Source: Monocercomonoides exilis PA203
Taxonomy: Eukaryota > Protista > Preaxostyla
Assembly (NCBI GenBank): GCA_001643675.2
Contig: LSRY02000015.1
Coordinates: 434,001 to 498,000, forward strand
Direction: 5' to 3'
Length of the DNA: 64,000 nucleotides
Shown here piece after piece: positions 10,235 through 64,000 of this stretch (position 1 is the first letter of the stretch; each line of letters begins with the position of its first letter). Under the pieces are notes generated by a model. The model saw only the letters and a list, made by a program, of their open reading frames with translations, made no database searches and had not been told where the DNA came from. A program made the position numbers and the translations under genes.

Positions 10235-12189
<1,955 letters not shown>

Positions 12190-24911: not shown

Positions 24912-25153
24912 AGAAATTTTTATTTCTGTTATATGTCTATGATCATTGAAATATATTTTAATTTATTGATTCTCATTTAAGAATTTTTTTATTTATATTT
25001 AAATTTTTGAATGAAGAGGAAAGTTTTATAAACCTTAATGTAGCACAATTTTTCATGAAAGCTCAATGGAAGGACTTGAACCCCTCCATTTACCCCCATG
25101 AGAAATTGGATTTCTTTCAAAATTCAAATATTGGAAAACTTCACATTTGAATA

Positions 25154-27141
25154 GGGTTATAATATTATCTCGACCTTTTTTTTAATAAATCATTAACTTT
25201 TCCCACAATTTCATATTTTTAAAGATTTTTAAGTATATATATGAATTCAATAGATAAAAATAAATACATTTTGAAACAAACCCAATTTCGCATGGGGGGG
25301 GAGATGGGGGGGTTTAGCCCCTTCATTGAACTTCTGTGTGGAATTGGAGGGTTGCATGGGGCATAAAACCTTCAGTTTGTTTAAAATGTTATTTTTCGAT
25401 TATTTTTTCATTTCATTTCAATTAAAAAAATAAAAAATTATTATGATCTTAAAAATATTATTAAAAAAATGAAAATATAAACAGAAATAGAATTAAAAGA
25501 AGGTCAGAAAAAATTACAGAGAGTAATGTCTTCGCGCAAGTACAGGAATTATCACAGTCGGCTGGAGCGAATGGCTCACATCGTTGTTGATGGAGTTGTT
25601 CGTATAACTGATGCTATCAATTCTAAGGAATTTAGTCGCACTGGAATAAAAAATGCAGTTAGAGCGCTGAGAAAAGGTAGGCTGGTTGGAAAAATTGGCA
25701 GACCTACAGCAGTGGTGGGCGAAAAGGAACAAAGAGTAATGGACATTATTCACATTGAAGTAAAGTCTGGAACATGTTTAACTTTGAAAAAAACAAGAGA
25801 ATGGGTTTGTTTAATTTTTATTTATATGTTTTAATCATTTGTTTTTCAGATAGAAAATGTTATAAACGACTACGATGACGAAGACGCACCATTTTCCGAA
25901 GTTTCAATGTCTGCAACTTTCGGCTTTGTCAAGCTTCATCCTGAGCTGATGACTGGAACACCGAAGAATCTGGACATTAACAGACTGGCTGTTTCGTGCA
26001 GAAGTGTTTTAAAACCCTGGTACAAAACACTTGACGAGCTGCACGAAAAATACCATTACAACCCAGCTTTAATAATAAACATTGACGAATCTTTAACGCG
26101 CGTTCCCACAGACTCAAAACGGCTTGTAGTGCATACAGCAGATACAAAAGCAGGTTTCACGAAAGAAACACCGAGGATGATCAATTCCACATTCGTAGCA
26201 GCTGTTGCAGCGGACGGATATGCCTTTCCTTCTGTCATTTTGTGGCCAAGCGTCAACCTGCCAGATGAGCTGAAATGCCTGTTATCTCCAACGCTTGAGA
26301 TATGGGTAAATGGAAGCGGCTGGATGGATAACGAGTGCTTTAAAATGTATGCTCTCACCGTTCTTCCACCTTCTATCATCGAAAGAAGAAAGCGCATGTC
26401 ACTTGAAAACGAACACATTCTTCTCCTTCTTGATTCGCATGCATCTCGTGCAGATCCATCGATCTGGCGAGAATTCCAAAAACAACAAGTCGACGTTTTA
26501 ACCTTCGTGCCACACAGCACACACATCTGTCAATCACTGGACAGAGAAGTGTTTGCTGTATTCAAATCTGAACTGACAAACAGATTTGAGGCTCCCTCTT
26601 CTTCTTCATCTTCCTCCAAACGAGCTGCAAATTCCGACGTTCTGCCTCAAGCCATCCACACTGCGTTATCTTTTTATGAAATACAGATAGCTTTCGTCTA
26701 CAGTGGTATTCTTCACAATTCTTCTGGGTCAGTTCTTTTGAAACTGCCTGAATCTTCGATTTACCCTCTTCCATCCCGAAGAAATAGATTCAACTTTTAT
26801 GGAAAAGTGATAACAGACGAAAATCTTTTAGAGAAATGTGAAAATCATTTGAAAATGAATATTGAAAGGAAAAATGAAATGGATGAAAAGGAGAAAGATG
26901 AAGTGAAGACTGTTGTGGATGAAAAGAAAAAAATAAAAAGAAAATATCTTCACGTTAAAAACGATGATTCTGACGATGAAAAGAAAGATAATGCATTAAA
27001 TCGAGCTGAAGGAAAAAGGAAAGTTATCAGAAGAATTAATTCTGATTTTGTTTTCTTTTAATCATGTTATTTTTTGAACTTTTAACACTTCATTTTTTTG
27101 GGTCAGAATAAAGAAAAAGGGTCAAGATAAAATAATAACCC
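25154..27141 (+). mobile_element. Full-length pogo/Fot1-like DNA transposon (1,988 bp) with TIRs and TA target duplication
   Basis: Left GGGTTATAATATTATCTCGACCTTTTT versus right (revcomp) GGGTTATTATTTTATCTTGACCCTTTT, 23/27 identical; TA at 25152-25153 and 27142-27143. Confidence 0.88.
25526..27061 (+). CDS. pogo-like DD35D transposase (DDE_1), 2 exons, ~496 aa
   Basis: Exons 25526-25804 and 25850-27061 join in frame across a 45-nt GT-AG intron; motifs GRP, INIDES, GWMD, LLLLDSHASR and PHSTHICQSLD with 35 residues between the last two Asp. Confidence 0.9.
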
Positions 27142-28062: not shown

Positions 28063-31000
28063 TCATTTGACAGTTGTTGTGCTGTTTGTGCACAAAGAAC
28101 CGTTTTCTTCACCATTCCCACTCTCAATCCCACTGTCTGGCTCAAGTGTGATTGCATCAGAAATCGTCATTATCAAGGCGCCTGGTGGAAATCCCTGAAT
28201 GAGCTCTCTTTTCAATCCATTCAATGTTCCTCGACACTGGCTGTTCTGTTCCAGACAACTCTTCACAATGTCCAACTTCGAACTCCCTTTTATAATCTCC
28301 AGTGGGGGTCTTTCTCCATTCACTATCTTCTGCCCAGCCACCTCTGCCTCGTATTCTCCAAACGGGATTTGAAGAGTCAAACATTCCCACAGCATCATCC
28401 CAATCGAGAATGACACCGACTCCTTTGTTGCCCCCATCTTCTTGTTTATCTGCAGCTCTGGCGCCTTCCATCTCAGACACTCTTTTTTGAAACTATCTTC
28501 ATCCTCAAAGGCTGATGAGGGAAGGGAGTCCTCATCATCATCACCACTGGCAGATGTCACAACTGTTGACGAAGAGATGGATGATGAATCTGAATCATCG
28601 TCTGACAATAAGTCTGAATGCATCACAATGCAGATCACCATGTGTTCGGAGAACAATACAATGTGAGGGCTCAGATTGGAAAGAGATTGAAGAGGGTTTT
28701 CCATCTCATCAAATGAATGGAGTGCTCCATTCGCAACCCAGAACAAAATCTGGGCAGCTGTTTGCTCTCTTTCTTTCAAGGAGCCAATTGGCATCTCCTT
28801 TGTCTTATTCAGCCCATGAAGCAGCATGAACAGCGAATCCCTCAAATCCACAATCAGCTTCTCATGAGGAGACGAGCATGCCATTGCATCCACCAGATTC
28901 GACATCGATGATGTGGTTGGGCACAAATCTTCCCCTCGAACAAATGTGGAATCTGAATCAGTTGAACAAGTCGAAGAAATTGATGGTGATGGAGTCTGTT
29001 TTCTAATTTCCTCTTCTTCAACCTTCTCCAATGCCCATTCTGGGATCTTGTCTGAATCTTTCCCCAATATGTATTCGGTAGATCCACTCTCAGAAAGAAG
29101 ATGCTCCGATGACTCCGAATGTTGCATGTTCGTATCATATATTCTCTTCTTCATTCTTTCCTCATTCTTCTTCTCTGCCTCTCTCTCTGCTCTCCTCCAT
29201 TGCTCCTCAGGTGACATCTCCATCGTCACCATCTCAATCAGCTTCGGATCTTTTCTGATATTATCGTTCACAATCTCTCTCAGATCTTCAGCTTCATTCT
29301 TAACCTTCTTCCATCGAACAACAAACAAAATAAATCCAATCAGAACGATCAAAAATAATATTGCCAACACAATAACAATTAACAACCAATACGATTTCCT
29401 TTCTTTCCCTCCTTCAACAATTCTGTCATCTCCATTCACCTTTGGCTCGCTTCTGTTCTTCACAATGAAAGAATCAGTGGATGATGGGTTTTTGACATCC
29501 CCAAAAAGAATGCTCACTCTCACCTCTGCCTCTTCTCCTGCCTCTGTTATCATTTCATTTGGCAGTCTCCCTTCAACTTCTGTCTCAGACACATATCCAC
29601 TCTCATCAAACTCATATTTCTCTATCTGCTTTTCAGCCCCAATCTGCTTCACAACCATGAATGACAAGTTGCACGGGAGAAGCAGCTTCCCTTTGAACAC
29701 AACCTCAACTTCTGCTCCTTCTTCCCTTGTTTCAACACCCTCCAACACTGGAATGAAGAATGAAGATGCTCTTTCAGAAACAATCCCTTCAAGCAGACAT
29801 CCATCATTCAAAAACCACATCGATGAGTCATCTTTCACTCCATCTCCTCCTTTCAAACTGGAAATAGACAGTGAAGCAGAGTCTGAACAGATGATATTTC
29901 TTCTCAATGATGGATATTTTGTATTCACAGGGTTGTTGTTGCTGAAGTTTCCTGCTTCAATCTTCACATTCCCACTCGATATGGATAATCCACCTGAAGA
30001 AGCATTCAAAATTGTCACGTCCTTCATCGCCAATGAAGAATTAGTTGAGTGAACAAGTGATCCATTCCATTCGCATATTTCTTTAAATGCATTATTTCTC
30101 TCGGTTTCACTTTCTTTTGAAAGAACTCCAACAAATCGACACGAATCCATCAAAACATCCTTCGCATTGTTCATCCCCATGATGCTTCCTTTGCTTGACA
30201 GAGAATTACAGTCTGAACAAGAACAGTTGGAAAGAACAATTTGAGCAGAAGTTGAGGAAGCGGAAAGAACAGAAGCTCCTTCTGAATTCCTCGAGCAGTT
30301 CTTGAATGAGGAGCTTCCAACCGAAACACTTCCCGAAGTTGAGCTGACAATCAAAATGATGCAACCTTCAGACAACTTCACTCCATCTGCATCAATTCCA
30401 TTCAGCACAACACTTCCACATTGCCCAATCTCAACAACATTTCTTGTTGATTCAACTTTTTCCAGTTTGAAATTTGTGAATGAGACCTCATCTCCATTTA
30501 GCAGAAATGAATACTTCTTGAAAGAAAGCTTTGATATTGAGCAGTTGTCAACATGCAGAATCCCTTTTGCAACGCTCAGCAAGGTTGAGTTGAGAAAAAC
30601 AACAGGTTGATTATTGTTTGACTCTCCAACAGATGAGAAGTCAACAAATGAAAGAGAAAGCTGGCCACCTGATTCATGAATGATGGAACTGCCTGAATAT
30701 GAAAACGATTGGTCAAAGTTGAATTTCAATCTCTCAAACCGAACTTTCTCTGAAGTTGTGAGAAGACTGCCCTCTTTGCCAGTAATTGTTGAGTTCAGAT
30801 GCACCAAAGCAGTTGAGGGAGACTCAAGTGAGCGGATGATCACATCATGCACATCACATTCCCCATTAATGATCGTCTCCTCCGAGATCAACAGCTGAGA
30901 ATATGATGAAGGAATGGTGTGTTGAACTCCAACATCCAATGAGTGGCATGGAGCATTGAACTCTCCGCATTGCTTGCTGTCTCCGTGGTTGCCTGTTGCT

Positions 31001-34000
31001 GAAGAAACAAATATCGTCTCGCTCTGGTATTTCACAACCCTCAGCAGAAGATCCTCTTCCTCCACAAATGAGTCTGTTGTGGCACCCCACATCGCGAGCT
31101 CCTTCACAAATGGTGTTCTGAAATCCAAAAGGAATTGCTCATCTGCAATTTGTGTTTCAATTGAATGGCATCTCACATACACATCTCTTCCCCTGAACGC
31201 AGAGTTGTCTTTGAATGTGATGTTCGACAGCACAAAGTTCAGAGGCTGCTCAACTGTCGAGGTGCATTCCAGAAACAGCCACCCGCCTCTTCCTGTGGTT
31301 GAGCAGAAGCACTCAGAAATCGTGCAAAATGAGCAGTCAAACTTTCCTCCCTCAATCAACACACAAAACATCCCTCCTCCCTTTCCACATCTCTTTCCGC
31401 CACACTTCTTCATCGTTGTGTTTCGAATCACCATTTTCAATGGCTCATCATCATTGTCATTTCGGATGACGGGAATGTTCTCTGTTGTGTTCTGGGTGAC
31501 TTCTTCGAATGAACTCCACTCAAAAATAATGTTTTGTTCCTCTTCATTATTTTCTCTCCCTGAACTCTTTGATATCCTCAATCCGCTTGCCCCATCAAGC
31601 TCAACATTCTTCATCGACAAGTTCTTAATGTTCATAATAGTCGAAGATAGCACAGAAATAACATCCTTTGAAAAGCTAAGTGATTGCATCGTCACTAATT
31701 CCAATACAACTGTCCCTCCATCTGCCTTTATCAACCCAAAATTAGTAATTTGTCCTCTGCTTTCTTCATTTTTTGTGAATGAGCAGTCTTTCACAGTCAA
31801 TAATCCATTGCTTGATCCAACATAAATCAAATTACTGACTCCACTTGTGAAGGATGATGGAATAACAAAGTCAATCAGTTCAAAATTGGTAATTCCACAA
31901 ATCTTCATTGCTGCTTCTTCTGCTCCTTCAAGTGATGAGAGACATTCCAAAGAGCACATTTCTTCATCATCCGATTTTATTGAAATTCCACTCACATCAA
32001 CACTCCTCTGAAGAATCCCCTTCCCAATAACGCTGATAATCCTTTCGTTTCCCTCAGACAATCTTGTTTGTGAATAATCAATTGATAGACAAGGATAATC
32101 TGAGAATCCGCAAGCACCCATGTCCCTTCCATCGCCTCCAACAAATATCTCTGATCCAAGTGTGCGCCAGAAATAGATAAGTGGAATAGTATTCTCTGTA
32201 TCATTCCCATCAAACCCTCTCATCGAATCCAACGAAATATCAGCCAGATGGTCTGATACAAATGGAAGAGAAGTGTTGGTGATGCTCTTTGTCAAGTTGG
32301 ATGATTCAACAAACAGATCATTTCCATATTGCGCAACATTTGGCTCTTCTGAATCAAAAACAGGAGATGAGATCACAAATGAAGAATAATCATCAATTAA
32401 CTTCAGTGCCATCCCTCCTCCAAAGCCAGTTTTCCCTTCTCCAGCTGGTGCTGTGCATCCTGTAAATGTGCATGAAATAATATTCAATTGGGTATTCCCT
32501 TTCAACTGAGCATTGATAGCACCTCCTCTGCTTTCATCAGCCAAAACAGAACATTCATCAAAATCACATTCTTCAATATTTATTTCTCCATTTGAATTTT
32601 CATCATTGCTGTTGTCAATGCTCACACAGCCTCCACTTCCAGCTGCTCTTTCTATTTTTGTGAAATTGCAGTTCGTCATGTTCAACCATTGCATGTTCAT
32701 CAACTCTGTGTTTGTTGTGCTTCCAGTCAACAAGATCAATGGATTTCCACTCAAAGTGATTGACGAAGCTGAGAATGAATCAATAGCCAAGGTTCCAGAC
32801 TCAACAAATAAGAACAGAATTGTCAATTCTGACAATGGATTTTGAAGAGAAATACAGCAATGAGACAAAGTCAGTTGTGAAGAAGAAGAAATAAAAGTTG
32901 AATGTGAAAGAGATGGAGGAATAGAGAAGATGAGTTTTGATAATTCTGTTTCAACACTTGCTGTTATCATCGCTGAGTTTGATGTTGAACTTGTATCAGA
33001 GACTGTCCAGCCACTTTGCTCATCATTTCCTCGGATTTCATGTTTCTGATTAGTAAATGACAATTCATCACTCATTAAAATCATTCCATTCGCATTCACT
33101 TTCTTTGTTTCTGTTTGACGTGTGAGTGAGTGCTTCAAGGTCAAACAAGGGAATTGGACAATTCCACAATAAGAATGATCATATGCCTCAATGCTGCTCA
33201 CATAAATTTCTTCTGGGGTGGGAAGAAGATAGATGCACAGAGGGATTGCCAAACTCGTGTTTCCATTGTCATATCCTCTCACCTTATCAAAAGAATCCAG
33301 TGAAGCTGTCAATGAAGTAATTTTCCCGCTTCTTGCTGTTGTTTCCAGATCGACTGAGTCAACAAAAATGTCACTTCCCCATTTGGCTCTATTTCCTTCA
33401 AATCCTGATGAAATCAGAAACTCTGCATTTGTGTCTTTCACTTTCAGCCCAATCCCTCCTCCTCTCCCTTGGATGGTCGAGGCATAACAGTTCTTCACAA
33501 CACCTCCATTCATCGTCAAAGAACCAACATTCCCCACTTCAACCATCATCCCTCCTCCAAATTCAGAGGCTTCGCTTCCACAGCCATCAATCGTGCATCC
33601 CTCAAGAGTTATTGAATGTGATCCTTCACTCACACTCATCAGCGATGATCCTGCTGTTGTCCTCACAATGTTGCTGAATGTGCAGTTGTCCAGAGACAAA
33701 GAAATAGATGATCCTTGAGGCAGAGATATCACACTTGTTGTGCTGAATGTTTGCCCCCATCTCACATCTTTCATCTTCAAACTTCCCCCTTCCATCTTCA
33801 CAAGCGAGTTCTGAATGCTCCTCTCTTCTGAATGAGTTTCATCCATCGATATATTCATTCTCTCCAAATTGATCCCTCCAGCCCCTTGAACCTCAAACAA
33901 TCTGCTTCTTCGGTTATTTTCAATTGACGAATTGTGAACCACAGACAGATCGCTCACATTCAATTCCCCTGTTCCAACACAAAACAAATTCAGTCCACTT

Positions 34001-35730
34001 GCCTCAAACTTTGTTTCAATGGCTGAGCCAGATGAAGAAACTCCATTCACAGAGATTGTTTTCTCTCCAATATCAATTCCTTTTCCTTCCATAATTGTTC
34101 CACTCAGCACCTTCATTTCCTCCACGAACCCCACAATCATTTGGGAAAGGCAATGGCTGATTGTGAGGCATGCACAACTTTCATTCAATCCGCAGTAGAA
34201 TGTGTCTTTCGCATTTGTCTGATTTTGAACTGAAGCAACAAATCTGCTTCTTCCTCCTTCATTGGGAAGCCACTCACTTTTATCTCCTCCTGCATAATAT
34301 CTCACTCCTTCTGTTCGTGTTGAATAACAGAAAGCAACTTGAGATTCTATGTTGTTATCGTTCACGTAAATATCGTTACCATAGGGTGCTGTGTTATTAT
34401 GGAAAAAGCAAAACCAAAAAATATTTCCGTTATATCCATTTGTTTGAACACTCAAAGCACCTCCATGGCGAGCTGAATGGCATCTTTGATACAAACAATT
34501 TTTCGCAACAATTCTATCACTGGAATTCCAATTTATAAATCCTCCTCCTCCAGAAGTCAAAGAACTATTCCCACTGCAATTCTCAAAGAAACAATCCAAA
34601 ATACAATCTTTTGTTTCCATTGCTTTTGAATTCCATATTCCAAGTCCACCTGCATCATTTCCAGACCATCCATCTTTGAAAAAACAATTTTCAACAAAAA
34701 CTTGGATTTTCATTCCATCAATTTCTGCTCCTGCACCTCCTCCATCTTTTGATGAAACGCAATAGCACTCAATAAATGTGGAGTGTTTTACAGCGCATTC
34801 AGCAATATTCAATGCATATATTCCTCCACCTCTTTCGGATGTCGCATTGCACTTCACAAATGATGAATTCTCAACTGTTAATGTGGTATTTGTATTGTCA
34901 TGCACATACAACCCTCCACCACATGGAGCAGAACATTCATTCCATTCAGCATTCGTGAAGTGCTGAGATTGGGTTGTGTCCAAATGCTCATTATTTCTTT
35001 TTTTCCAATCCACTCTTTCGTTGTGGAGGAATGTGCAGTTCTTGCAGGAAAATGCAATGGATCCTTCTGTTCCGCTCACAATCCCTCTCTCCAGCACATT
35101 CATCGAACTTTCAACTCGGCAATCTTCCATAATGCTCATTTTCATCATTGACACTTTTCCGATTGGCATTTCATCTGTTTCCATGAATTTCATTGTGATG
35201 TTTGAAAAAGCACTGTTTTTGATTCCTTCAAATGACCCTTCTCCATTTCTCAAAATGCTTCCACTCCCACAAAACACAATGTTCCTCCACTCACTGTTTC
35301 TCACAAGCAACGATGCATCTTCTTCTTCCATCTTCACAAGACTATTCATCATCAACTCACAATTGTTGTTTCGTTTTTCGATGTTCAAAGAAGTGTTTAT
35401 CATTTCGCATGTTCCTTCATTGAAGACAAAATGTTCATCGAAACCTCTTTTTCTCATCAACAGGCAGTCATCAAGGCGCAGGAATGATTTTGCTCCCACA
35501 TCAAATGCCGCATCATCATCTGCCTTTTCCAACATTATTTCCTTCAATTCGACTGACGAGTTATGGATTTTGCAGAACAGTCGAACAACACTTCCCTGCT
35601 CCAAAATATGACTTTCTGACTGAGCAGGAATTTGAAAAATGAGATGTCCATTCCTTTGTGCATCATTTCTATCTGTGCCACAAAATGTGAAACACAAGCA
35701 CTCAGCAAAAACAAAAAGAATCATTATCAT
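28063..35730 (-). CDS. Giant single-pass receptor-like protein (2,555 aa): signal peptide, repetitive beta-helix (pectin-lyase/PMP-like) ectodomain, TM helix, degenerate kinase-like C-terminus
   Basis: Hydrophobic N-terminus; GGGLYV/GGGIY/GGAI and F..C.A repeats; TM YWLLIVIVLAILFLIVLIGFILFVV; kinase subdomain VIII-XI-like LRWKAPEL...SFSIGMMLWECLTLQIPF...GERP; no introns. Confidence 0.85.
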   Translation of the reverse strand: MIMILFVFAECLCFTFCGTDRNDAQRNGHLIFQIPAQSESHILEQGSVVRLFCKIHNSSVELKEIMLEKADDDAAFDVGAKSFLRLDDCLLMRKRGFDEHFVFNEGTCEMINTSLNIEKRNNNCELMMNSLVKMEEEDASLLVRNSEWRNIVFCGSGSILRNGEGSFEGIKNSAFSNITMKFMETDEMPIGKVSMMKMSIMEDCRVESSMNVLERGIVSGTEGSIAFSCKNCTFLHNERVDWKKRNNEHLDTTQSQHFTNAEWNECSAPCGGGLYVHDNTNTTLTVENSSFVKCNATSERGGGIYALNIAECAVKHSTFIECYCVSSKDGGGAGAEIDGMKIQVFVENCFFKDGWSGNDAGGLGIWNSKAMETKDCILDCFFENCSGNSSLTSGGGGFINWNSSDRIVAKNCLYQRCHSARHGGALSVQTNGYNGNIFWFCFFHNNTAPYGNDIYVNDNNIESQVAFCYSTRTEGVRYYAGGDKSEWLPNEGGRSRFVASVQNQTNAKDTFYCGLNESCACLTISHCLSQMIVGFVEEMKVLSGTIMEGKGIDIGEKTISVNGVSSSGSAIETKFEASGLNLFCVGTGELNVSDLSVVHNSSIENNRRSRLFEVQGAGGINLERMNISMDETHSEERSIQNSLVKMEGGSLKMKDVRWGQTFSTTSVISLPQGSSISLSLDNCTFSNIVRTTAGSSLMSVSEGSHSITLEGCTIDGCGSEASEFGGGMMVEVGNVGSLTMNGGVVKNCYASTIQGRGGGIGLKVKDTNAEFLISSGFEGNRAKWGSDIFVDSVDLETTARSGKITSLTASLDSFDKVRGYDNGNTSLAIPLCIYLLPTPEEIYVSSIEAYDHSYCGIVQFPCLTLKHSLTRQTETKKVNANGMILMSDELSFTNQKHEIRGNDEQSGWTVSDTSSTSNSAMITASVETELSKLIFSIPPSLSHSTFISSSSQLTLSHCCISLQNPLSELTILFLFVESGTLAIDSFSASSITLSGNPLILLTGSTTNTELMNMQWLNMTNCNFTKIERAAGSGGCVSIDNSNDENSNGEINIEECDFDECSVLADESRGGAINAQLKGNTQLNIISCTFTGCTAPAGEGKTGFGGGMALKLIDDYSSFVISSPVFDSEEPNVAQYGNDLFVESSNLTKSITNTSLPFVSDHLADISLDSMRGFDGNDTENTIPLIYFWRTLGSEIFVGGDGRDMGACGFSDYPCLSIDYSQTRLSEGNERIISVIGKGILQRSVDVSGISIKSDDEEMCSLECLSSLEGAEEAAMKICGITNFELIDFVIPSSFTSGVSNLIYVGSSNGLLTVKDCSFTKNEESRGQITNFGLIKADGGTVVLELVTMQSLSFSKDVISVLSSTIMNIKNLSMKNVELDGASGLRISKSSGRENNEEEQNIIFEWSSFEEVTQNTTENIPVIRNDNDDEPLKMVIRNTTMKKCGGKRCGKGGGMFCVLIEGGKFDCSFCTISECFCSTTGRGGWLFLECTSTVEQPLNFVLSNITFKDNSAFRGRDVYVRCHSIETQIADEQFLLDFRTPFVKELAMWGATTDSFVEEEDLLLRVVKYQSETIFVSSATGNHGDSKQCGEFNAPCHSLDVGVQHTIPSSYSQLLISEETIINGECDVHDVIIRSLESPSTALVHLNSTITGKEGSLLTTSEKVRFERLKFNFDQSFSYSGSSIIHESGGQLSLSFVDFSSVGESNNNQPVVFLNSTLLSVAKGILHVDNCSISKLSFKKYSFLLNGDEVSFTNFKLEKVESTRNVVEIGQCGSVVLNGIDADGVKLSEGCIILIVSSTSGSVSVGSSSFKNCSRNSEGASVLSASSTSAQIVLSNCSCSDCNSLSSKGSIMGMNNAKDVLMDSCRFVGVLSKESETERNNAFKEICEWNGSLVHSTNSSLAMKDVTILNASSGGLSISSGNVKIEAGNFSNNNPVNTKYPSLRRNIICSDSASLSISSLKGGDGVKDDSSMWFLNDGCLLEGIVSERASSFFIPVLEGVETREEGAEVEVVFKGKLLLPCNLSFMVVKQIGAEKQIEKYEFDESGYVSETEVEGRLPNEMITEAGEEAEVRVSILFGDVKNPSSTDSFIVKNRSEPKVNGDDRIVEGGKERKSYWLLIVIVLAILFLIVLIGFILFVVRWKKVKNEAEDLREIVNDNIRKDPKLIEMVTMEMSPEEQWRRAEREAEKKNEERMKKRIYDTNMQHSESSEHLLSESGSTEYILGKDSDKIPEWALEKVEEEEIRKQTPSPSISSTCSTDSDSTFVRGEDLCPTTSSMSNLVDAMACSSPHEKLIVDLRDSLFMLLHGLNKTKEMPIGSLKEREQTAAQILFWVANGALHSFDEMENPLQSLSNLSPHIVLFSEHMVICIVMHSDLLSDDDSDSSSISSSTVVTSASGDDDEDSLPSSAFEDEDSFKKECLRWKAPELQINKKMGATKESVSFSIGMMLWECLTLQIPFGEYEAEVAGQKIVNGERPPLEIIKGSSKLDIVKSCLEQNSQCRGTLNGLKRELIQGFPPGALIMTISDAITLEPDSGIESGNGEENGSLCTNSTTTVK

Positions 35731-36299
35731 GAGGATAATTATGGTTCATTATTAACCATTATTAATAAAATTCATAGATTATTTTGAACTCTTATCAATA
35801 TTGATTCTTCTTGCTTTTTTTAAATTTGTTAAATCCAATGTTATTCATATTGCTTTGCCTTTTTAATAACATAATCATTTAGCCGAAAAAGATTGAATTT
35901 TTCTTTTTCTTCGCTCTGTAATAACTATGGTTTTATTTTATTCTGCATGAATGAGGAATGTTAACATCTTGATATCATTTCCAACGAAATATTCTTCATG
36001 TGTAATTATCTTTCAATGAAAAGAAGAATAACAATTAAAAAAGATGTTTTCGTTGGAAATATTTAAAAATTAAAAAAATAAAAAAAATGAACAATATTTT
36101 TACAAACTTTAAATGTTCTGAGAGAGGCCTAAATTCGTTTGGGAAGTGAATTTGATTTTCGTCAATAATTCCATCACTTCAAAACCGTCCTTGCTTCAAA
36201 AACTTCATATCGAATTACTTTTTATATATATTTCCCTCATTTCTCTCTTCCTTTTTCTATCATTTCTTCATTCTTTATTTCTGAATCTTCATTATTTCT

Positions 36300-37000: not shown

Positions 37001-37656
37001 ATTGAGCCTCTATTAGAAAACAAAAAAGGAATATAAAATTCAAAATAAATAAAGACTTTAAAGTCTTTCATGCCTCAAAATCATCCATTTTCTGCTGATA
37101 AAATATATCCGGCAAAGACAAAATAAAACTCTTTAGCATTCAAAGGAGAGCATGCCTAAAATATTTATTTGCGTTTTAGAAGCATTTAAACGTTCATCTG
37201 AGTCATAAGACCGGAAAAAACAGAAAATGTTAAAGGCAGGAATTGAAGTTTAATAATGGGCATGTTGATATTTTCAAAATCAAGTCAGCAGGATGCTTGG
37301 CTTTGTCATTGAAAACTTTGTAGAATTAATTGAACGAAGAAATTCATTCTGAAATATTTCATTTTGAAAACAATATTTCTTAATAATGAATGTGAACTCA
37401 AAAAAATATCAATTTCTCTGTTCATATGATATGTCAAACTGAAATTCTAACATATATGCACCAAAAATAATTGTATTTCGAAAAAAAAATAATTCAAAAT
37501 CAAAAAATAACTCTACAGTTTCAAAAATTAAAAATTCTAATTCTGAACTTATATTTCTGAAATTTTGTCATTTTTTTTTGAAATAGAATTTTTTTTTGGT
37601 GTGTGCATAAATATGATTGAAACTTCATTTTTTCCGAAACCCTTTATGAAAAAATA

Positions 37657-38637
37657 ATGAAAATTGTTTTGTTAACATTTTCCATAACGGGAAATACAGC
37701 ACATGTTGCGGATTCTATTTCAAAAACACTTTCTAAATATGGTCATTCAGTGCAATTGTTTGATGCTGTAAGTTTGGTAAAGTTATTAGGTCTGGCACAA
37801 AAAGTTCCAGAATTGAAGCATCAACCTGCACCAACTGGACATGAAGTCGAAATTTTATCTCTTTTATCTGCAATAAAGGAGGCAGATGCGTTTGGAGTTG
37901 GAAGTTATGTGTTTAATTTCTTTCCAGCTCCAGGAGTTCTTGAATTGTTAGATGATAAATGGATGCCTCCTGAGTTGTTCGAGTCAGTTAAAATGTTTTT
38001 CACATTTACAACACATGGAAGCCTTCCACATCCAGTTGGAGATATTTTAGCAACATGCATCTCAAAGAAAAATCCAGCAATGCTTTATGCAGGGAATATA
38101 AACGTTAGAGTGCCAGAGAATTTCGTTCCGCTTCAACCACATAAGCCATACTACGACATATGGGATCCTGTAGAAATTAAATTAATGGAAGAAAAAATTG
38201 ATAGATTAAGAGTATTTTTATCATTTCCTTCTTCATCTGTTCAATTTACTCATGTTGATAATCCTGATGTAAAACGATATATATCACCTTCAACAATGAT
38301 GGGTGCACCACTTTTGGACAAAGAAAAATGTAAAAAATGTGGTCTTTGCGTTATGAAATGTCCTTATAATCTTATCCAAATATCACCTGATATTGAAGAC
38401 GGATTTCCAGTGTTTCAAAGAGATGGGTGCTATGGATGCGGTCGATGCTTTAATAGTTGCAGACAAGAAGCTATTAACTTTACATTATTCGATTCAAAGA
38501 ACCGTTCTCGTTACTGCGGACCTGTTTTTCCAGGAGAAAAGAGAGCTTTAGATGGAAAGGAAAGTGGGATAGAATATACTCCCATTCCAGACGTTGATAA
38601 TCTCTTAAAACGTATACAATTTGAAGTGAAGCCTTAA
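37657..38637 (+). CDS. EFR1-type flavodoxin-ferredoxin fusion (flavodoxin-like domain plus 2[4Fe-4S] domain)
   Basis: N-terminal FSITGNT flavodoxin loop, F.THG and VPENF; C-terminal CKKCGLCVMKCP and CYGCGRCFNSC..EAI; no introns. Confidence 0.88.
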   Translation: MKIVLLTFSITGNTAHVADSISKTLSKYGHSVQLFDAVSLVKLLGLAQKVPELKHQPAPTGHEVEILSLLSAIKEADAFGVGSYVFNFFPAPGVLELLDDKWMPPELFESVKMFFTFTTHGSLPHPVGDILATCISKKNPAMLYAGNINVRVPENFVPLQPHKPYYDIWDPVEIKLMEEKIDRLRVFLSFPSSSVQFTHVDNPDVKRYISPSTMMGAPLLDKEKCKKCGLCVMKCPYNLIQISPDIEDGFPVFQRDGCYGCGRCFNSCRQEAINFTLFDSKNRSRYCGPVFPGEKRALDGKESGIEYTPIPDVDNLLKRIQFEVKP

Positions 38638-46982: not shown

Positions 46983-49723
46983 ATGTCTTCACAAGGTGAA
47001 TCTCAGGCAGTTGCAGATGGAGGTGCTGCTCAGACTTTGAAAACGTCATCGCCTCCAGTTCCACCTCCTATTGATACCACACAAGCACCAGATGCTGGAC
47101 AAGAACAATCTTTGCAAATGGTTGAGGATCAAGAAGAAGGTATTTCATTTATTTGTTTGCTTTAATTTCTTTTGGTATGACATTTTTCATTACATAATAG
47201 TAATTGATGAAAAGCCACATAGCATCATCATGGGGATTGTTAAACAGCTTCATATCGGAATGGATCTTTCTCGAGTTTCTTGTGTGCTCTCTTCTATTAT
47301 ATTAGCTTTCACAGCAATGTATTTGTTCAGTGCCAACATTTGTTCTCGAGCCACGTTCAATTATCGAGCGATATACTGACTTTATGGTGCATTCCGATTT
47401 GCTTATTCAGTTTGTGAACATTTTCATGTCAATTGTTTTACGAACGAATTTTAATGCAGGGCAATTAAAAAGCCAGATCCAATTGAACGTTTAATAGGGA
47501 TATCAGTTTGGTATTATTCTGGGTGGCATCCTCAACGACGTGGAGTAAAAAAACCTTATAACGCAATTCTCGGTGAAGTTTTTAGATGTTTTTGGAATAA
47601 TTATGATGGAACAAAGACATGGTACGTGGCAGAGCAAGTTTCTCATCATCCGCCCGTTAGCGCTTTTCGGTATGAAAATACTGAAAATGCAATGAGTCTT
47701 CAATGCCATGTCTACACAAAAACAAAATTCCTTGGAAACTCCATTCAAGCAATCATGGAAGGAGATGGAATCCTGACATTAGGCAATCAAGGTGGAGAGC
47801 AATACATCTTCGATTTTCCATCTGTCTATGGGCGTGGTATATTTTTGGGGAAGTTGGCCGTTGAAGTTGCTGGAGAAAGCACCATCAGATGCAAACAAAG
47901 CAAATTGATGACTTATTATGATTTCAAGCCAAAGGTTTGATGATGCGTAGAACTTGAATATAAAATAATTAATTGCATTTTGAAATGGATATTTTATTCT
48001 TATTCATCATGAACTTTTCTTTTGAAATTATTTGACAAAATTATTTTCTTATCATTTTTTTTTTCTGTGTGTGAATATTATTTAATTGGAAATGTTCTTC
48101 TTCAGCCGATGATGTTTGGCAAATACAACCAAGTCTCCGGGAAAATCTGCGAATTGACAGGAAAGCTGAAGGACGACAGAAAAGGCAAAGGCAAAAAGCT
48201 GTTTTCTCTGTCTGGAGATTGGACACAGAATCTTGTGATAACAGATGAGAGAAAGCCAGCAACATTGAATGTATAATCATTTGATTGAAAATTATCCGTT
48301 TTGTACTTTCAATTTGTGGAATATTTTCTTTTTCTTCTTTTTCTTCTTCTTTTAAAAATTTAAAGGGTGGAAAACCATTGGAGATATTTAATGTTAAGAC
48401 AGCAACAGAAACAAAGAAGCTTGTTGCTCGCGAAGAAGATCAATTGCCTTACGAAAGCAGACGGTTTGATTCATTTTCAAATTTTTTAATCTTTTATTAT
48501 TAATGTATTTTTTTATCTCTTCCATTTATTTAATGATTTCCTCATTGAAATCAACACATTTCAAATTTTGTGATTTTCTTTTCTTTTTTCTTTTTTCTAA
48601 TCCCTAACAATTCCCACCCCAACCCACACCCCCAGCCTATGGCACGACGTGACCGATGCACTGAAGCGAGCGAGTGTAGAAGACGCATCCAACGCAAAGC
48701 ATGTCATTGAAGAAAGACAGCGAGCAGCAGCAAGAGAGCGATTGGATCAAGGGATCGGGTGGAGACAGAGGTACTTCCATTGGGACGAGGCACAGCAGAG
48801 GTGGCTGTTCAACTACCCGTTTGACTCAACGCTGGTTGATGAGAAGTATCAGGGCGAAGAAGACGATGCTGATGGGAAGAAGAAAGGAGAAGCGAAGGAA
48901 AAGGAGAAAGCAAGCTCTTCTGCTACACCTTCTTCTTCTTCTTCTTCTTCTTCGGATGACTCGAAGAAGCCGATCAATCCAAATAAATTGAGGACGGTCG
49001 AGCTGACGCCTTACAACATCCCTGATGCACGGAGCCTTCTTCCACACCCAGACAAAGGGAAACACACAGAGAAAGGCAAAGACAAGGACGTGTGGGGTTT
49101 GTGGTGATTTCAAATTAGGATTTATTAATAAATGATGTAATGTTTTAATTTATTTATTTACTAAATAAAAACATGTTGGTGGCTTAACATTATGAAATTA
49201 ATATTTGATTTATTTGTAATTTCCTATTTATTTAATCACTTGCTATTATTCAGCCACTGAGTGCCCGCCTTTGCCCAAAGCAGTTGGACGCCCGTGGCCA
49301 ATGCTCATTCCATCCACACCTCTCACCCCTCATTCCCCTCATACTCCCAAAGCAGATAACACTTCTGAACCTTCTTCTTCCTCCTCCTCTCCTTCTTCTT
49401 CTTCCTCTTCTTCCTCTTCCTCTTCTTCTACCACACCCGTTCCTGTTCCTGCTGCCCCAGCTGTTGTTGAGCCCGACGACCCGTCCAAGTCCCCCGAGCT
49501 CCCCACAATCACTGCTCTGACAGAAAAAGCCCCGCCCGAAGCACTCGAAGCTGACATCTCCTCCAGCGGCGTCGTCTCCTGCTCTCCTTACCCTCCTTCT
49601 CCTACCCCTGGCGCCTTGCCTTCTACCGGCAGCGCTCCGCCGCCAATTCAGCAGAACCAGTTCGGATTGCTGGCGTCTCAGACTACAAAGCCACAGCCTT
49701 CTGGTCCGTCTAAAAGCTCGTAG
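46983..49723 (+). CDS. Oxysterol-binding protein-related lipid transfer protein (Osh6/7-ORP5/8-like), multi-exon
   Basis: Spliced GMDLSRVSLPTFVLEPRS, KKPYNAILGEVF, EQVSHHPP, ESR.LW..VT.AL and AKHVIEERQR; last exon (from 49254) adds a Pro/Ser-rich tail ending TAG at 49723. Confidence 0.93.
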
Positions 49724-50156: not shown

Positions 50157-51574
50157 ATGAGGATTTTTATTATTCAATTACTGCTTATAATTTCTCGATG
50201 CTCCGATGAAGTCCGTCTTTCAAAAGTTGACTCTCTCATTTTTTCTTCCTTCCATTCAACAATTCCCCACAACGGACTTCGAAAAATTCAAGCGGAAGTA
50301 TTTGATTCAATTAAAATTTATTTTTCAAAAACTAATTTATTGAATTTTTTAACAGTACATCCAAGTTGATCCATCAATTCCAAATTCACCTTTGTCAACT
50401 ATAACATGCTACAATCAAAAGAACAGGAAACATTTCAATGGTATCCCCAAAATAAACTTTTTATTTGCTGTAATATTTAAATGATATTTAAGGTTCATGG
50501 TTATGCGCTTCTGCAGAAATGCCAGTTGGTATGGAATTTGGTTTTGCTGAAGTTCATTGCGAAAATCCGAAAAAGAAATACAGTGACAATGATCCCTATG
50601 TTTACAAAGATGTTTGCATTATATTTATCAGCTATCTAATAATAATATGATTATTTCATTCCAAAATTTTGAATCTAATTTTTTTCAAAAAATTTTCAGT
50701 CTTGCTGGCTAACTTATTCCTTGAAATTGTCCCCGAATCAAAGATATGCAACAACAAGCACTTCTTCTTCTGGTGGTAGCTCTTATACTTCGTCTTCTGC
50801 ATACTCTTCATATTCATCATCTTCCTCCCATTCAAATCCTTTGCAATCACATCCACAACATAATAACCAAAAGTATCAACATCCACGTTCAACAAAAAAT
50901 ATGTTGACAAACGAACTTTCGATTTCCAATGGAAATGTTAAGACAGCCTTCCTCAAAAACAGCAATGGAGAGAAAGAATATTTTCTGACTGAAATACCAT
51001 TGAAGCAAAAGAACCATCTTCTTTTCCATCTCTTCGACTCCAACGGAGAAATTGTTTTGAGCCTCTCGAAAATGGACAGCCGCGTTCTGAGCTTTTATTC
51101 CTCTTCAACGCCGCTGGGGTCAATGGCTCAGAGCCAAACAAATTCTGACGAGTACATCTTCTACACGCCCGAGGCAAAGGCATTTGCGAAAGCTGTATTT
51201 GTGTGAACAATATTTCATTTTTTTTTCCTGTTTATCGATTTATTTTTTAATATAACGTCTTTTTTCCAATGTGCTTAAAATGAATCTTTTTGTCTCTTTG
51301 TGTCTTTTTATTTATTTATTTATTGTTTCAGACATCCAAAACAACCATCGACATCGTCCAGCTCTCCACAAATGAAGTCATCACTTCTTTGAAACGCTCG
51401 TCTCATTCATCTCGTTCAGGCATATTTTCTGGCTTGTTCCCTTCGCCTTTCGCACGTACCGAGTCAACCTGGAGCATCGAGTCGTACAAGATGGATGTGA
51501 TGGACCCGCGGCTGGTGGCGCTGTTTGCAGCAGCGTTTGACACGTCAAAGGGAGGATTCACACTGGAGCTGTGA
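50157..51574 (+). CDS. SARAF (TMEM66/DUF1183) luminal-domain-like protein fused to a tubby/scramblase-like domain, 5 exons
   Basis: Exons 50157-50297, 50356-50440, 50493-50611, 50700-51200 and 51332-51574 join in frame; signal peptide, then VRLSKVDSLIF...ITCYNQ...WLC...MEFGFAEVHCE...DPYVYKDSCWLTYSLKL. Confidence 0.7.
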
Positions 51575-59559: not shown

Positions 59560-61197
59560 TTTGCATCATCATCGTACGAAATTAAAAGTCGCTTTTTCTT
59601 AACTTTTCTTTCTCTCAATTCATGCTTGTTTAATGTTTTCTCATAATTCAAACTCTTCTCCTTTGGCTCATTTATGTCGCTCAGCAATTTCATTAACTGA
59701 TTTCTTGATTGTTACACTTTTTTCGTGCGAATTTTCACAGAAATGCTGTCATCCTTTTTATCTGGAAAATTTGTGACAGATGTTTTCTTTCCTTCTGCTG
59801 GCTTCATGTTGCTACTATCCATATGACTTCTTCATGTTTTTATCCATTTGTTTGTGGGAGAAAATTTTCCATTCAACTCCGAATCCCAGCTTTATTTTTT
59901 TTTTTCTGTTCTTTGCAAAACGGGTGAATCAGAAACTTTTGACAGAACAGGTGCTGCCATCACAGGCCAAATACAAGTTTTCTGAAACGGGCTTTATGTA
60001 GTTAATGGAGATGTTGAAGAAGTGAGTGCTTCAGGAAGAACTTTTGCTAATTCACTTCGAAACGAAGAGGAAGAATGTGGTTGCGGTGGGTTGAAATTGT
60101 CATTAAAAGTCTTTTTAAATCTTGCAAATATGCTGCTGTTTCATGGCTGAAGAAGATGAGAGAGATTTGGAGGAAATCTCATCATTATTATTCCTTGTTT
60201 ATCTGCGCATTTCTCAACTTTTTCATTGATGTGAGAAGGATGGTTATCAAGAAGGAAAACAGCTTTTGGCATATTTGAGAGTTTCATTTTTGTATTAATC
60301 GAAGGTATCCAATGAGAAATCATGATAGTTTCAAAGATTGATGGATTTTTCCATCCTGAAGATGATGAGATAAAACGTTTGTTGAATGACGGAAGAGTTC
60401 GAAATTCTATTGGAAGCTTTCGACTGGAATAAAGGAGAAAAGAAGGCAAAGACGATCCATCAGCACAAACGCAAACACAAAGAGTCGAATTTGCTGTTTT
60501 GTTGGGAATTGGATGTGACGGAGGTATTTGATTTCTCAAATACACTCACAGCTTGCGTGAGCTTTCTCCACATCTCAAAGATGTTTCATCGAAATTCAAT
60601 ATACCGTTTTCACCTATATTGCATGTTTCCAAAACATTTTTGAATTGATCAAACCATTTACGGATGCCATATGGTGACTGTGCCAACATTTTGGATCGTT
60701 CCATTTGTTTGAATAATGCAGATTTGAGAATTTTGTTATGATCGATCATATAACATGCAGCTGAAATACATGGAAATTTTATTTTTGTTTTTTCCTTAGA
60801 GTTTTCTTCATTATAATCTTTCATCTTAATAACAAAGAAAAATTAAAAAAAATAAGAAAATTGCACTTCAGATCATTTTGAAGATATCTTTCACTCGAAC
60901 AACCTTCCCTTCTGACAGCATAACAAGTATTTTGTTTTCGATTGTTTCAATCATTGAGTCTGCAATAATGGAAGGTCTACCATTGATTCCAACTTCTCTG
61001 TTATTCTTTTGGGCATTCACTCCTCGATACTAAGAGCCTTTCGAAATAATGCCAGATCCTATTGCCACACCAGGTGACACAACATTATTCTATTTGATTT
61101 CAAAAATTTTCTTTGAAATGCTGCCCAATTTCCTTATTTCAGCACATGCCAATTTTTTTTGAAGGTCTGATGCAGAAAGTTCGCAATGGTTTGTCAT
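59560..61197 (-). pseudogene. Decayed, more divergent pogo-like DDE_1 transposase
   Basis: GRPS, ILNFDETSL, CVCADG, SSGW, FLLDNHPSH and FPPNLSHLLQP* with frameshifts and stops; 42-nt intron 60825-60866. 3' boundary approximate. Confidence 0.82.
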
Positions 61198-62135: not shown

Positions 62136-64000
62136 TCATCTGTCTGTTGTGCTTATCTGGTTGCTTCCATCTTGTTCTGAGTCTTCGATATATATCACTG
62201 CATCTGACATCGTGAGCATCACCGCTCCTTCTGGAAATCGCTGGATGAACTCGCGCTTCAGACCTTGAAGAGACAGCCGCTTTTCACTCTCTGATGACAG
62301 GCACGACAGAATCATGGGCAACAGCACCGACTCTTCTGCTTCCTTCATGCTTGGCCTCTCTCCATTCACGATCTTCTGCCCTGCCACCTCTGCCTCATAC
62401 TCCCCAAACGGGATTTGAAGGGTCAGACACTCCCACAGCATCATCCCAATCGAGAATGACACCGACTCCTTTGTTGCTCCCATCTTCTTGTTCATCTGCA
62501 GCTCTGGCGCCTTCCACCTCAAACACTCTTTTTTGAAGCTATCTTCATCCTCAAAGGCTGATGAGGGAAGGGAGTCATCGTCATCATTGCCACTGGCAGA
62601 TGTCACAACTGTTGATGACGAGATGGAGGATGAATCTGAGTCATCATCGGACAATAAGTCTGAATGCATCACAATGCAGATCACCATGTGCTCGGAGAAA
62701 AGAACAATGTGAGGGCTCAGATTGGAAAGAGATTGAAGAGGGTTTTCCATCTCATCAATTGAATGGAGTGCGAGATTAGCAACCCAGAACAGGATTTGGG
62801 CAGCTGTCTGCTCTCTTTCCTTCAATGTGCCAATTGCCATCTCTTTTGTCTTATTCAGCCCATGCAGCAGCATGAACAGTGAATCCCTCAAGTCCACAAT
62901 CAGCTTCTCATGAGGAGACGAGCACGCCATTGCATCCACAAGATTCGACATGGATGAAGTTGTTGGGCACAGATCCTCCCCTCGAACAAATGTGGAATCT
63001 GAGTCAGTTGAACATGTTGAAGAAATTGATGGTGATGGAGTCTGTTTTCTTATTTCCTCTTCCTCCTCCTTTTCCAATGCCCAATCAGGAATCTTGTCTG
63101 AATCTCTTCCAAGGATGTATTCTGTTGAACCACTCTCAGAAAGAAGATGCTCTGATGACTCAGAATGTTGCATATTCGTATCATACACCCTCTTCTTCAT
63201 CCTTTCTTCATTCTTCTTCTCTGCCTCCATCTCTGCTCTCCTCCACTGCTCTTCAGGTGACATCTCCATCGTCACCATCTCAATCAGCTTCGGATCCTTT
63301 TTCACTGTGTCATTCACAATCTCTTCCAATTCTTCTGTCCTTCTCTTTTGTTTCCTCCACCGAAGTGTTGAAATTACTGCAACAATTAGAATAAACAAAA
63401 GAACAACAACAAGGATAATAACAATCAACAACCAATACGATTTCCCTTCTTTTCCTCCTTCAACTATCCTTTCATCTCCATCAACCTTGGGCTCGCTTCT
63501 GTTCTTCACAATGAAAGAATCAGTGGATAATTGTTTGTCAACATCTCCAAACAGAATGCTCACTCTCACCTCTGCCTCTTCTCCTGCATCACTTATCATC
63601 TCCCTTGACACCTTCCCTTCAACTTCTGTCTCCGATACATATCCACTCTCATCAAATACAAACTTTTCTATCTGCTTTTCTTCTCCAATCTGCTTTACAA
63701 CCATGAATGACAAGTTGCAAGGCAGCAGCAGCTCCCCTTTGAACGCAATCTCAACTTCTGCTCCTTCTTCCCTTGTTTCAACACACTCCAACACCGGAAT
63801 GAAGAAAGGCGATGCTCTTTCAGAAATAATTCCTTTAATTAGACAACCCTCATTCAATATCCACATCGATGAGTCATCCTTCACTCCATCTCCACCTTTC
63901 AAACTGGAAATGGTCAATGAAGCAGAATCAGAGCAGATGATATTTCTTCTCAATGATGGATATTTTGTATTCACAGGGTTGTTATTGCTGAAGTTTCCTG
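62136..64000 (-). CDS. Second copy of the giant receptor-like pseudokinase gene, 5'-partial
   Basis: Collinear and largely near-identical to the last ~620 aa of 28063-35730; frame continues past the window end. Confidence 0.88.
   Translation of the reverse strand, partial: GNFSNNNPVNTKYPSLRRNIICSDSASLTISSLKGGDGVKDDSSMWILNEGCLIKGIISERASPFFIPVLECVETREEGAEVEIAFKGELLLPCNLSFMVVKQIGEEKQIEKFVFDESGYVSETEVEGKVSREMISDAGEEAEVRVSILFGDVDKQLSTDSFIVKNRSEPKVDGDERIVEGGKEGKSYWLLIVIILVVVLLFILIVAVISTLRWRKQKRRTEELEEIVNDTVKKDPKLIEMVTMEMSPEEQWRRAEMEAEKKNEERMKKRVYDTNMQHSESSEHLLSESGSTEYILGRDSDKIPDWALEKEEEEEIRKQTPSPSISSTCSTDSDSTFVRGEDLCPTTSSMSNLVDAMACSSPHEKLIVDLRDSLFMLLHGLNKTKEMAIGTLKEREQTAAQILFWVANLALHSIDEMENPLQSLSNLSPHIVLFSEHMVICIVMHSDLLSDDDSDSSSISSSTVVTSASGNDDDDSLPSSAFEDEDSFKKECLRWKAPELQMNKKMGATKESVSFSIGMMLWECLTLQIPFGEYEAEVAGQKIVNGERPSMKEAEESVLLPMILSCLSSESEKRLSLQGLKREFIQRFPEGAVMLTMSDAVIYIEDSEQDGSNQISTTDR

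Follow-up and report, generated by a model that had tools for sequence, protein, structure and literature searches.

A SARAF-family luminal domain fused to a tubby/LURP/scramblase-type barrel in Preaxostyla, with a probable location in the ER lumen

In ordinary SARAF (TMEM66) proteins, the luminal domain (PF06682; PDB 6O2U, 6O2V and 6O2W) is joined to a transmembrane (TM) helix and a cytosolic tail. The role of this domain is described in PMC8391525 as mechanistically unclear, with no Ca2+ site resolved in its structure. The phospholipid scramblases (PLSCR, PF03803) and the LURP-one-related proteins (DUF567, PF04525; At5g01750, 1zxu) share a 12-stranded barrel, and the C-terminal domain of tubby belongs to the same superfamily (PMC2639001); the same account describes the hydrophobic last helix of this fold as buried and not transmembrane. 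Reported locations of scramblase and tubby barrels are nuclear or on the cytosolic side, and a copy in the ER lumen would, if true, extend the fold to a new setting. Our literature search found no report of a SARAF-barrel fusion or of an ER-lumen member of the barrel fold, a point on which supplementary files and subscription papers may also bear.

Here we describe MONOS_4176, a gene of Monocercomonoides exilis PA203, a protist without mitochondria, which lies in a stretch of 64,000 nucleotides of contig LSRY02000015.1 (the window, in which all positions are counted from the first letter). The gene comprises five exons on the + strand at positions 50157-51574 that form one open frame when joined (Table 1), and their translated product of 362 amino acids is identical to the database protein P0001 (MONOS_4176, uncharacterized, Monocercomonoides exilis). 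The coordinates given in the initial annotation, which proposed five phase-compatible exons, were exact. The P0001 record probably derives from the same genome, so that the match represents agreement with the annotation and not independent proof. The introns are GT-AG, 52-131 nt long and have a GC content of 14-22%, compared to 33-51% in the exons. An in-frame donor lying 6 nt earlier at intron 4 would yield a protein of 360 amino acids, and the annotated protein uses the later donor. The junctions at introns 2 and 3 are indirectly supported by the relative P0012, in which 19 extra residues are inserted precisely where intron 2 lies and the match stops at intron 3. In addition, four RNA runs of one study contained 0.65-0.66 of the sampled words, close to the 0.62-0.71 expected if spliced, which is a weak hint of a spliced transcript.

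Table 1. Features of MONOS_4176, with positions in the window
Feature	Positions	Strand	Remarks
Exon 1	50157-50297	+	start codon, predicted signal peptide; SARAF domain begins
Predicted signal peptide	50157-50204 (residues 1-16)	+	pattern and hydropathy only
Intron 1	50298-50355	+	58 nt, GT-AG, phase 0; agrees with annotated protein
Exon 2	50356-50440	+	SARAF domain; area of first Cys pair loss; Cys65
Intron 2	50441-50492	+	52 nt, phase 1; insertion in relative P0012 at the same place
Exon 3	50493-50611	+	SARAF core, Cys80 and Cys98; Pfam SARAF E 0.018 for the exon alone
Intron 3	50612-50699	+	88 nt, phase 0
Exon 4	50700-51200	+	residues 116-282: final SARAF strand with Cys117, linker, most of barrel
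Ser/His/Gln linker	50733-50900	+	within exon 4
Intron 4	51201-51331	+	131 nt, phase 0; a second donor at 51195 keeps the frame
Exon 5	51332-51574	+	final barrel strands, candidate ER-retrieval tail, stop
Phe-rich loop	51404-51463	+	low confidence; exon 5
Predicted buried helix	51506-51541	+	exon 5

The N-terminal domain (residues ~17-126), which had been proposed to be a SARAF luminal domain, was confirmed as such by Pfam (PF06682; E 8.6e-11; score 42.5 bits, curated cutoff 30.8), and the Paratrimastix orthologue P0002 also scored just above this cutoff (31.2 bits). A profile built from three family members found the human SARAF luminal domain as its top PDB match (E 0.0013-0.002). Structure comparison of the low-confidence model of MONOS_4176 pointed the same way, with 6o2w/6o2u as the top three Foldseek matches (E 2-3e-4) and a VIA match to the SARAF fold with a Z of 7.3 and an rmsd of 5.6 over 95 aligned residues. 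Pfam matches to chi-conotoxin on the leader, and to LAP2alpha and SR-25, were below cutoff and were rejected.

An alignment of 14 proteins bore out the proposal that four cysteines are kept and that the first pair was lost together: Cys 65, 80, 98 and 117 are invariant, as are the core W/V/DP residues, and the first pair, present in 11 of the 12 ordinary SARAFs, is absent from both full-length fusions (P0001 and P0002). MONOS_4176 thus retains four of the six SARAF cysteines, short of the three disulfide pairs of ordinary SARAF. The residue following the third kept Cys is aromatic in all 12 ordinary SARAFs but Pro in the fusion, and the C-terminal tail motif that is conserved in ordinary SARAFs was lost along with the first Cys pair; this joint loss suggests that the fusion's SARAF domain has a remodelled binding edge. 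A MAFFT overlay of P0001 residues ~320-326 on the ordinary SARAF tail was not accepted as homology. The region that matches the domain-swapped beta9/beta10 dimer switch of human SARAF (150-165) is occupied in MONOS_4176 by the Ser-rich linker (pLDDT <50), and the best alignment of the model to 6o2u ends at residue 152. In a tree of the 14 domains, P0001 paired with P0002 (97/92), a weak result given that both are long branches and the tree is unrooted.

The C-terminal part of MONOS_4176 (residues ~183-352) is a barrel by structure comparison of predicted models. The barrels of P0001, P0002, P0003 and P0026 had no Pfam match at E<=10, including to PF03803 and PF04525. The tubby/scramblase-like barrel nevertheless held up at the level of structure. 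The AlphaFold model of MONOS_4176, built from four sequences, has a mean pLDDT of 48.6, although values of 60-84 are reached in blocks that make up much of the barrel (the single-sequence model, at 36.5, was unusable). Residues 180-356 of this model matched 1zxu by VIA with a Z of 12.9 and an rmsd of 3.1 over 143 aligned residues, whereas the natural barrel ranked next was far behind (Z 6.6); Foldseek also matched the barrel to 1zxu (E 4e-4). The Atlas model of the barrel matched scramblase/LOR clusters with TM scores of 0.70-0.77, the nearest being PF03803 scramblase clusters that are bacterial, an origin that is no sign of transfer. An Atlas feature search gave best values of 0.88-0.89 for the barrel, which we treat as a lead, and no match for the whole protein. 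The model resolves ten strands of the 12-stranded fold as well as a helix at 341-352, around which the predicted barrel closes; confidence is low for the first two strands. What it shares with the LURP-one-related and PLSCR proteins is therefore a barrel around a C-terminal hydrophobic helix (143 of 162 residues), whereas it differs from them in its identity of 10-12%, in lacking a Pfam match and a palmitoylation Cys cluster, and in being fused to SARAF. No tubby chain was among the structure matches listed by Foldseek and VIA. Tubby domains are characterised by a basic PIP2-binding pocket; the barrel here is about neutral in net charge. We regard the domain, on these models, as a tubby/LURP/scramblase fold that matches none of the Pfam profiles. 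A complex prediction of the SARAF domain with the barrel gave a median of 0.01.

The claim that no TM helix follows the SARAF domain also stood. Outside the N-terminus, the highest 19-residue Kyte-Doolittle mean of MONOS_4176 is 0.91, at the terminal helix, and the corresponding maxima are 0.82-0.97 in all four family sequences, compared to at least 1.65 in 18 of the 19 ordinary SARAFs; by hydropathy, then, MONOS_4176 is predicted to lack a TM helix at this place. The fusion shares with SARAF/TMEM66 the Pfam match, the fold, the four cysteines, an N-terminal signal-like leader and, in the Paratrimastix orthologue, association with the ER. It lacks the first Cys pair, the TM helix, the cytosolic tail and the C-terminal RR; instead, its SARAF domain is followed by a barrel and then by a tail ending in [D/E]L. 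MONOS_4176 therefore contains a SARAF-family domain but falls outside the SARAF proteins, having neither TM helix nor tail and only two of the three Cys pairs.

These differences bear on whether the fusion could act in the manner of human SARAF, sensing Ca2+ or redox state in the lumen and regulating store-operated calcium entry. Its SARAF domain is genuine by PF06682, and PMC8391525 proposes the SARAF disulfides as a redox sensor; however, the same source reports that inhibition of CRAC by SARAF needs no luminal domain, and the fusion is missing the TM helix and cytosolic tail. Text searches, which are not searches for homology, gave no matches to 'stromal interaction' or 'calcium release' in the Paratrimastix proteome descriptions available to us, nor to STIM or Orai in the main text of PMC6759080. 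A role as a STIM regulator is thus unlikely, and we consider the SARAF-like reading as a whole very improbable. Paratrimastix expresses an ordinary SARAF (PaPyr746), while by the same text search those descriptions contain no STIM or CRAC annotation.

The fusion, for which the initial annotation knew no described counterpart, proved to be present in two other metamonads, Paratrimastix and Streblomastix. A phmmer search with MONOS_4176 over 1.84 billion representatives returned 25 matches, consisting of the query, P0002, P0003, P0012, 19 ordinary SARAFs (those listed by phmmer, and not a survey of all SARAF architectures) and two unrelated repeats (P0009 and P0010), which had no SARAF match and were dropped. 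Four of the 19 ordinary SARAF matches, the metagenome records P0004, P0005, P0006 and P0016, have two tandem SARAF domains. P0002 is the 328-residue protein PAPYR_3225 of Paratrimastix pyriformis and has a leader, a SARAF domain, a short Pro-rich linker and a barrel in the same order as P0001, to which it aligns over residues 60-349 (E 1e-25). In Streblomastix strix, a single ORF, P0026, encodes the barrel together with the latter half of the SARAF domain (E 2e-22 to P0001), and P0003 is a partial model with the barrel, a different N-terminus and no SARAF part. Each of the three genera thus has an ORF that spans the SARAF and barrel domains (P0001, P0002 and P0026). Orthogroup q2010634 (PMC10703272, S3 File) contains MONOS_4176, two Streblomastix genes and PAPYR_3225, and is empty for the other 16 of the 19 taxa, including Blattamonas and Trimastix, in which the gene may be dispensable or may have been missed. 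Word-index protein searches, one of them with exon 4 as the query, returned P0001 only; a further one, in which 7995 candidates were scored, returned P0001 and P0002 but missed P0003 and P0026 and is therefore insensitive. A metagenome scan found no relatives among 202 pattern matches. These searches suggest that the fusion is absent outside Preaxostyla.

It might be argued that the annotation has joined two genes, or a SARAF remnant and a barrel gene, into one model, since the exon junctions of MONOS_4176 were not seen in reads (no records in any of the four RNA runs) and the Streblomastix models are partial, P0003 having no SARAF part. However, exon 4 spans the SARAF/barrel junction, which makes the join of the domains independent of predicted splicing, and the domain order is repeated in P0002 and P0026. 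Furthermore, LOPIT proteomics of P. pyriformis (PMC9746703) recorded 15 unique peptides for the orthologue PaPyr3225, which together cover 65% of its 328 residues; the 213 covered residues exceed both the 176-residue barrel and the 133-residue SARAF-plus-linker, and the peptides must therefore come from both halves. An artefact of this kind is exceedingly improbable, and we are all but certain that the SARAF-barrel architecture is real; so far it is restricted to Preaxostyla. It is a new combination of known parts whose function is so far undescribed: the terms 'SARAF' and 'PaPyr3225' have no matches in the main text of PMC9746703, and in the supplements, as far as these were available to us, the fusion genes occur only as 'hypothetical' rows.

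In Paratrimastix, the ordinary SARAF (PaPyr746) and the fusion (PaPyr3225) occur in the same cell, from which we infer that the fusion likely arose from a SARAF duplicate. In this duplicate, before the split between Paratrimastix and the oxymonads, the TM helix and the cytosolic tail would likely have given way to a barrel and a retrieval tail. The orthogroups of PAPYR_746 (q2004801) and of the scramblase PAPYR_9060 (q2004908) are empty for all three oxymonads in the S3 File of PMC10703272, Blattamonas being empty in these as well as in q2010634. The emptiness of the PAPYR_746 orthogroup means that MONOS_4176 may be the last SARAF-domain protein in M. exilis, with the caveat that tight clustering can split divergent genes. 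We distrusted the members of q2004801 from outside Preaxostyla, because one identifier maps to dynein in the S2 File, which is likely an identifier collision. A tubby gene distinct from the fusion is also present in Paratrimastix, and MONOS_3676 belongs to its orthogroup. Since the fusion keeps the SARAF domain without the STIM-regulating parts, the presence of both forms in Paratrimastix allows them to be compared within one cell.

The fusion has a signal-like leader and a candidate retrieval tail. The N-terminus of MONOS_4176 is hydrophobic and ends where ordinary SARAF leaders end, unlike PLSCRs, which are described as cytoplasmic in PMC2639001, and PLSCR1 and TULP1, which are described as having no signal peptides in PMC3590573. 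At the C-terminus, P0002 ends in KDDL, P0001 in TLEL and both Streblomastix sequences (P0026 and P0003) in FSDL, so that a [D/E]L end is found in all four family sequences but in none of the 19 ordinary SARAFs, 14 of which end in RR. This [D/E]L is kept across tails that are otherwise unalignable. TLEL is a non-canonical candidate retrieval tail; a human tail ending in SLEL has been verified as a retrieval sequence, and Thr at -4 is expected to act like Ser (PMC8276033). The orthogroup of the KDEL receptor, in the tables consulted, includes MONOS_5675 of M. exilis.

The fractionation data in the tables of the LOPIT study allowed the location of the Paratrimastix orthologue to be addressed. We compared the 40-fraction profile of PaPyr3225 with those of 26 rows, hand-picked for clear annotation or class (for example, 5 of 12 rows were kept from one listing) and labelled as lumen or membrane by us. 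Among these comparators, the profile was nearest to BiP (0.051) and Grp94 (0.060), followed by calnexin 1 and PDI, and its distances to the class centroids were 0.063 for the ER lumen, 0.093 for the ER membrane, 0.180 for Golgi/vesicles, 0.201 for the plasma membrane and 0.253 for the food vacuole. The lumen marker PDI1, on the other hand, was farther away (0.139) than the membrane markers. PaPyr3225 was distinct from Sec61 in the 30k and 80k fractions in all four replicates, and its cytosol-fraction share of 0.9-1.2% fell between those of BiP/Grp94 (1.3-1.6%) and Sec61 (0.3-0.8%), which is not decisive. As controls, the ordinary SARAF PaPyr746 was nearest to Sec61 (0.045-0.048) and the scramblase PaPyr9060 to a plasma-membrane marker (0.091), while the Paratrimastix tubby protein tracked neither. 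The orthologue PaPyr3225 is thus expressed and ER-lumen-like in fractionation, and follows the lumen chaperones whereas the ordinary SARAF follows Sec61. Co-fractionation with BiP/Grp94 is a property it has in common with KDEL-type soluble ER proteins, in Paratrimastix alone and as the nearest two of 26 comparators.

The [D/E]L tails in three genera, the verified human SLEL tail and the BiP/Grp94-like profile together favour the ER lumen, and it is very likely that the fusion is resident there, a location that in Monocercomonoides is expected from orthology. The earlier proposal of a soluble secretory or ER-luminal protein is accordingly upheld as to a soluble-lumenal protein, the tails and the profile favouring the second of its two options. 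A variant of the first, in which the protein would only transit the ER on its way to secretion or to the food vacuole and would bind prey or host-side membranes, would suit the non-canonical tails of Monocercomonoides and Streblomastix, and PMC3590573 describes PLSCR1 and TULP1 as able to function extracellularly. It is nevertheless improbable, because PaPyr3225 lies far from the food-vacuole and plasma-membrane centroids, the Paratrimastix orthologue ends in KDDL, and the [D/E]L end has persisted where the rest of the tail has not.

Our preferred reading, which we hold tentatively, is that MONOS_4176 may be a lumenal lipid-docking adaptor. Signal cleavage and retrieval by the KDEL receptor would keep the fusion in the ER lumen. 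There, exposed hydrophobic loops of the barrel would attach it reversibly to lipids of the lumenal leaflet, and the SARAF sandwich would bind a protein partner; by replacing the TM helix, the barrel would make the placing of the sandwich at the membrane reversible instead of permanent. The partner-binding step is suggested by the human SARAF domain, which accepts swapped strands (PMC8391525). The docking step is suggested by PLSCR1, for which PMC10371867 describes a barrel that binds membranes peripherally, exposes hydrophobic loops, is not long enough in models to cross the bilayer and shows only weak scrambling, and by the Phe/Leu-rich stretches that are kept in the barrels of P0001, P0002 and P0026; tubby barrels are likewise described as peripheral membrane binders (PMC2639001, PMC10371867). 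The top amphipathic 11-mers fall in such stretches in P0026 (183-198) and P0002 (262-274), although the Phe-rich loop of P0001 itself did not stand out by hydrophobic moment, and the P0002 stretch may, depending on the alignment, be a different loop from that of P0001.

The properties of PLSCR1 also bear on the suggestion that the fusion itself moves lipids on the lumenal side, as a scramblase or as a lipid-transfer protein. That the nearest Atlas models are scramblase clusters would fit such an activity, but the length and weak scrambling reported for the PLSCR1 barrel do not, and the core of the predicted barrel is filled by a helix, as in the fold described in PMC2639001; this possibility is quite remote.

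Several observations speak against the lipid-docking adaptor: the barrels are about neutral (net charge -1 to 0 in P0001, P0002 and P0026), that of P0001 contains no Cys for palmitoylation (P0002 and P0026 have one each, and none has a Cys cluster), and the profile is nearer to soluble lumen proteins than to membrane proteins. The same observations, and the separation of PaPyr3225 from Sec61, would be expected of a chaperone-like or cargo-binding factor that is entirely soluble in the ER lumen, with proteins as the ligands of both domains and a barrel that no longer binds membranes. We consider this possible but rather unlikely, since the described members of the barrel fold act at membranes (PMC2639001, PMC10371867) and the Phe/Leu-rich stretches have been kept in all three barrels. 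As the fusion protein is small and likely soluble, ligands of both its domains can be searched for directly.

To a wider scenario we give a low probability as a whole: in Preaxostyla, a barrel of the scramblase/tubby type would have been transferred to the ER lumen and joined to SARAF, the oxymonads would later have lost both their membrane-bound SARAF and their ordinary scramblase, and the fusion would serve as a sensor of lumenal-leaflet lipids. If such a lumenal lipid sensor were true, the SARAF domain would have an ancient job in the ER that is independent of STIM/Orai.

Elsewhere in the window, an oxysterol-binding protein gene (47455-49720, + strand; Pfam E 3.8e-38) ends ~440 bases upstream of MONOS_4176 on the same strand, with no evidence of a functional link between these neighbours. 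The broken frames at 23709-27058 and 60144-60545 resemble remnants of DDE transposases, and the frame at 10918-11616 (- strand) resembles the ribosome-assembly factor KRR1. A stop-free frame of 338 codons at 37621-38634 (+ strand) has a flavodoxin-like N-terminus (FMN_red, weak) and 4Fe-4S dicluster motifs. A stop-free frame of 2560 codons at 28066-35745 (- strand) and a frame at 62139-63998 (- strand) that runs off the window end look like paralogues, and these two regions carry near-identical text in opposite frames.
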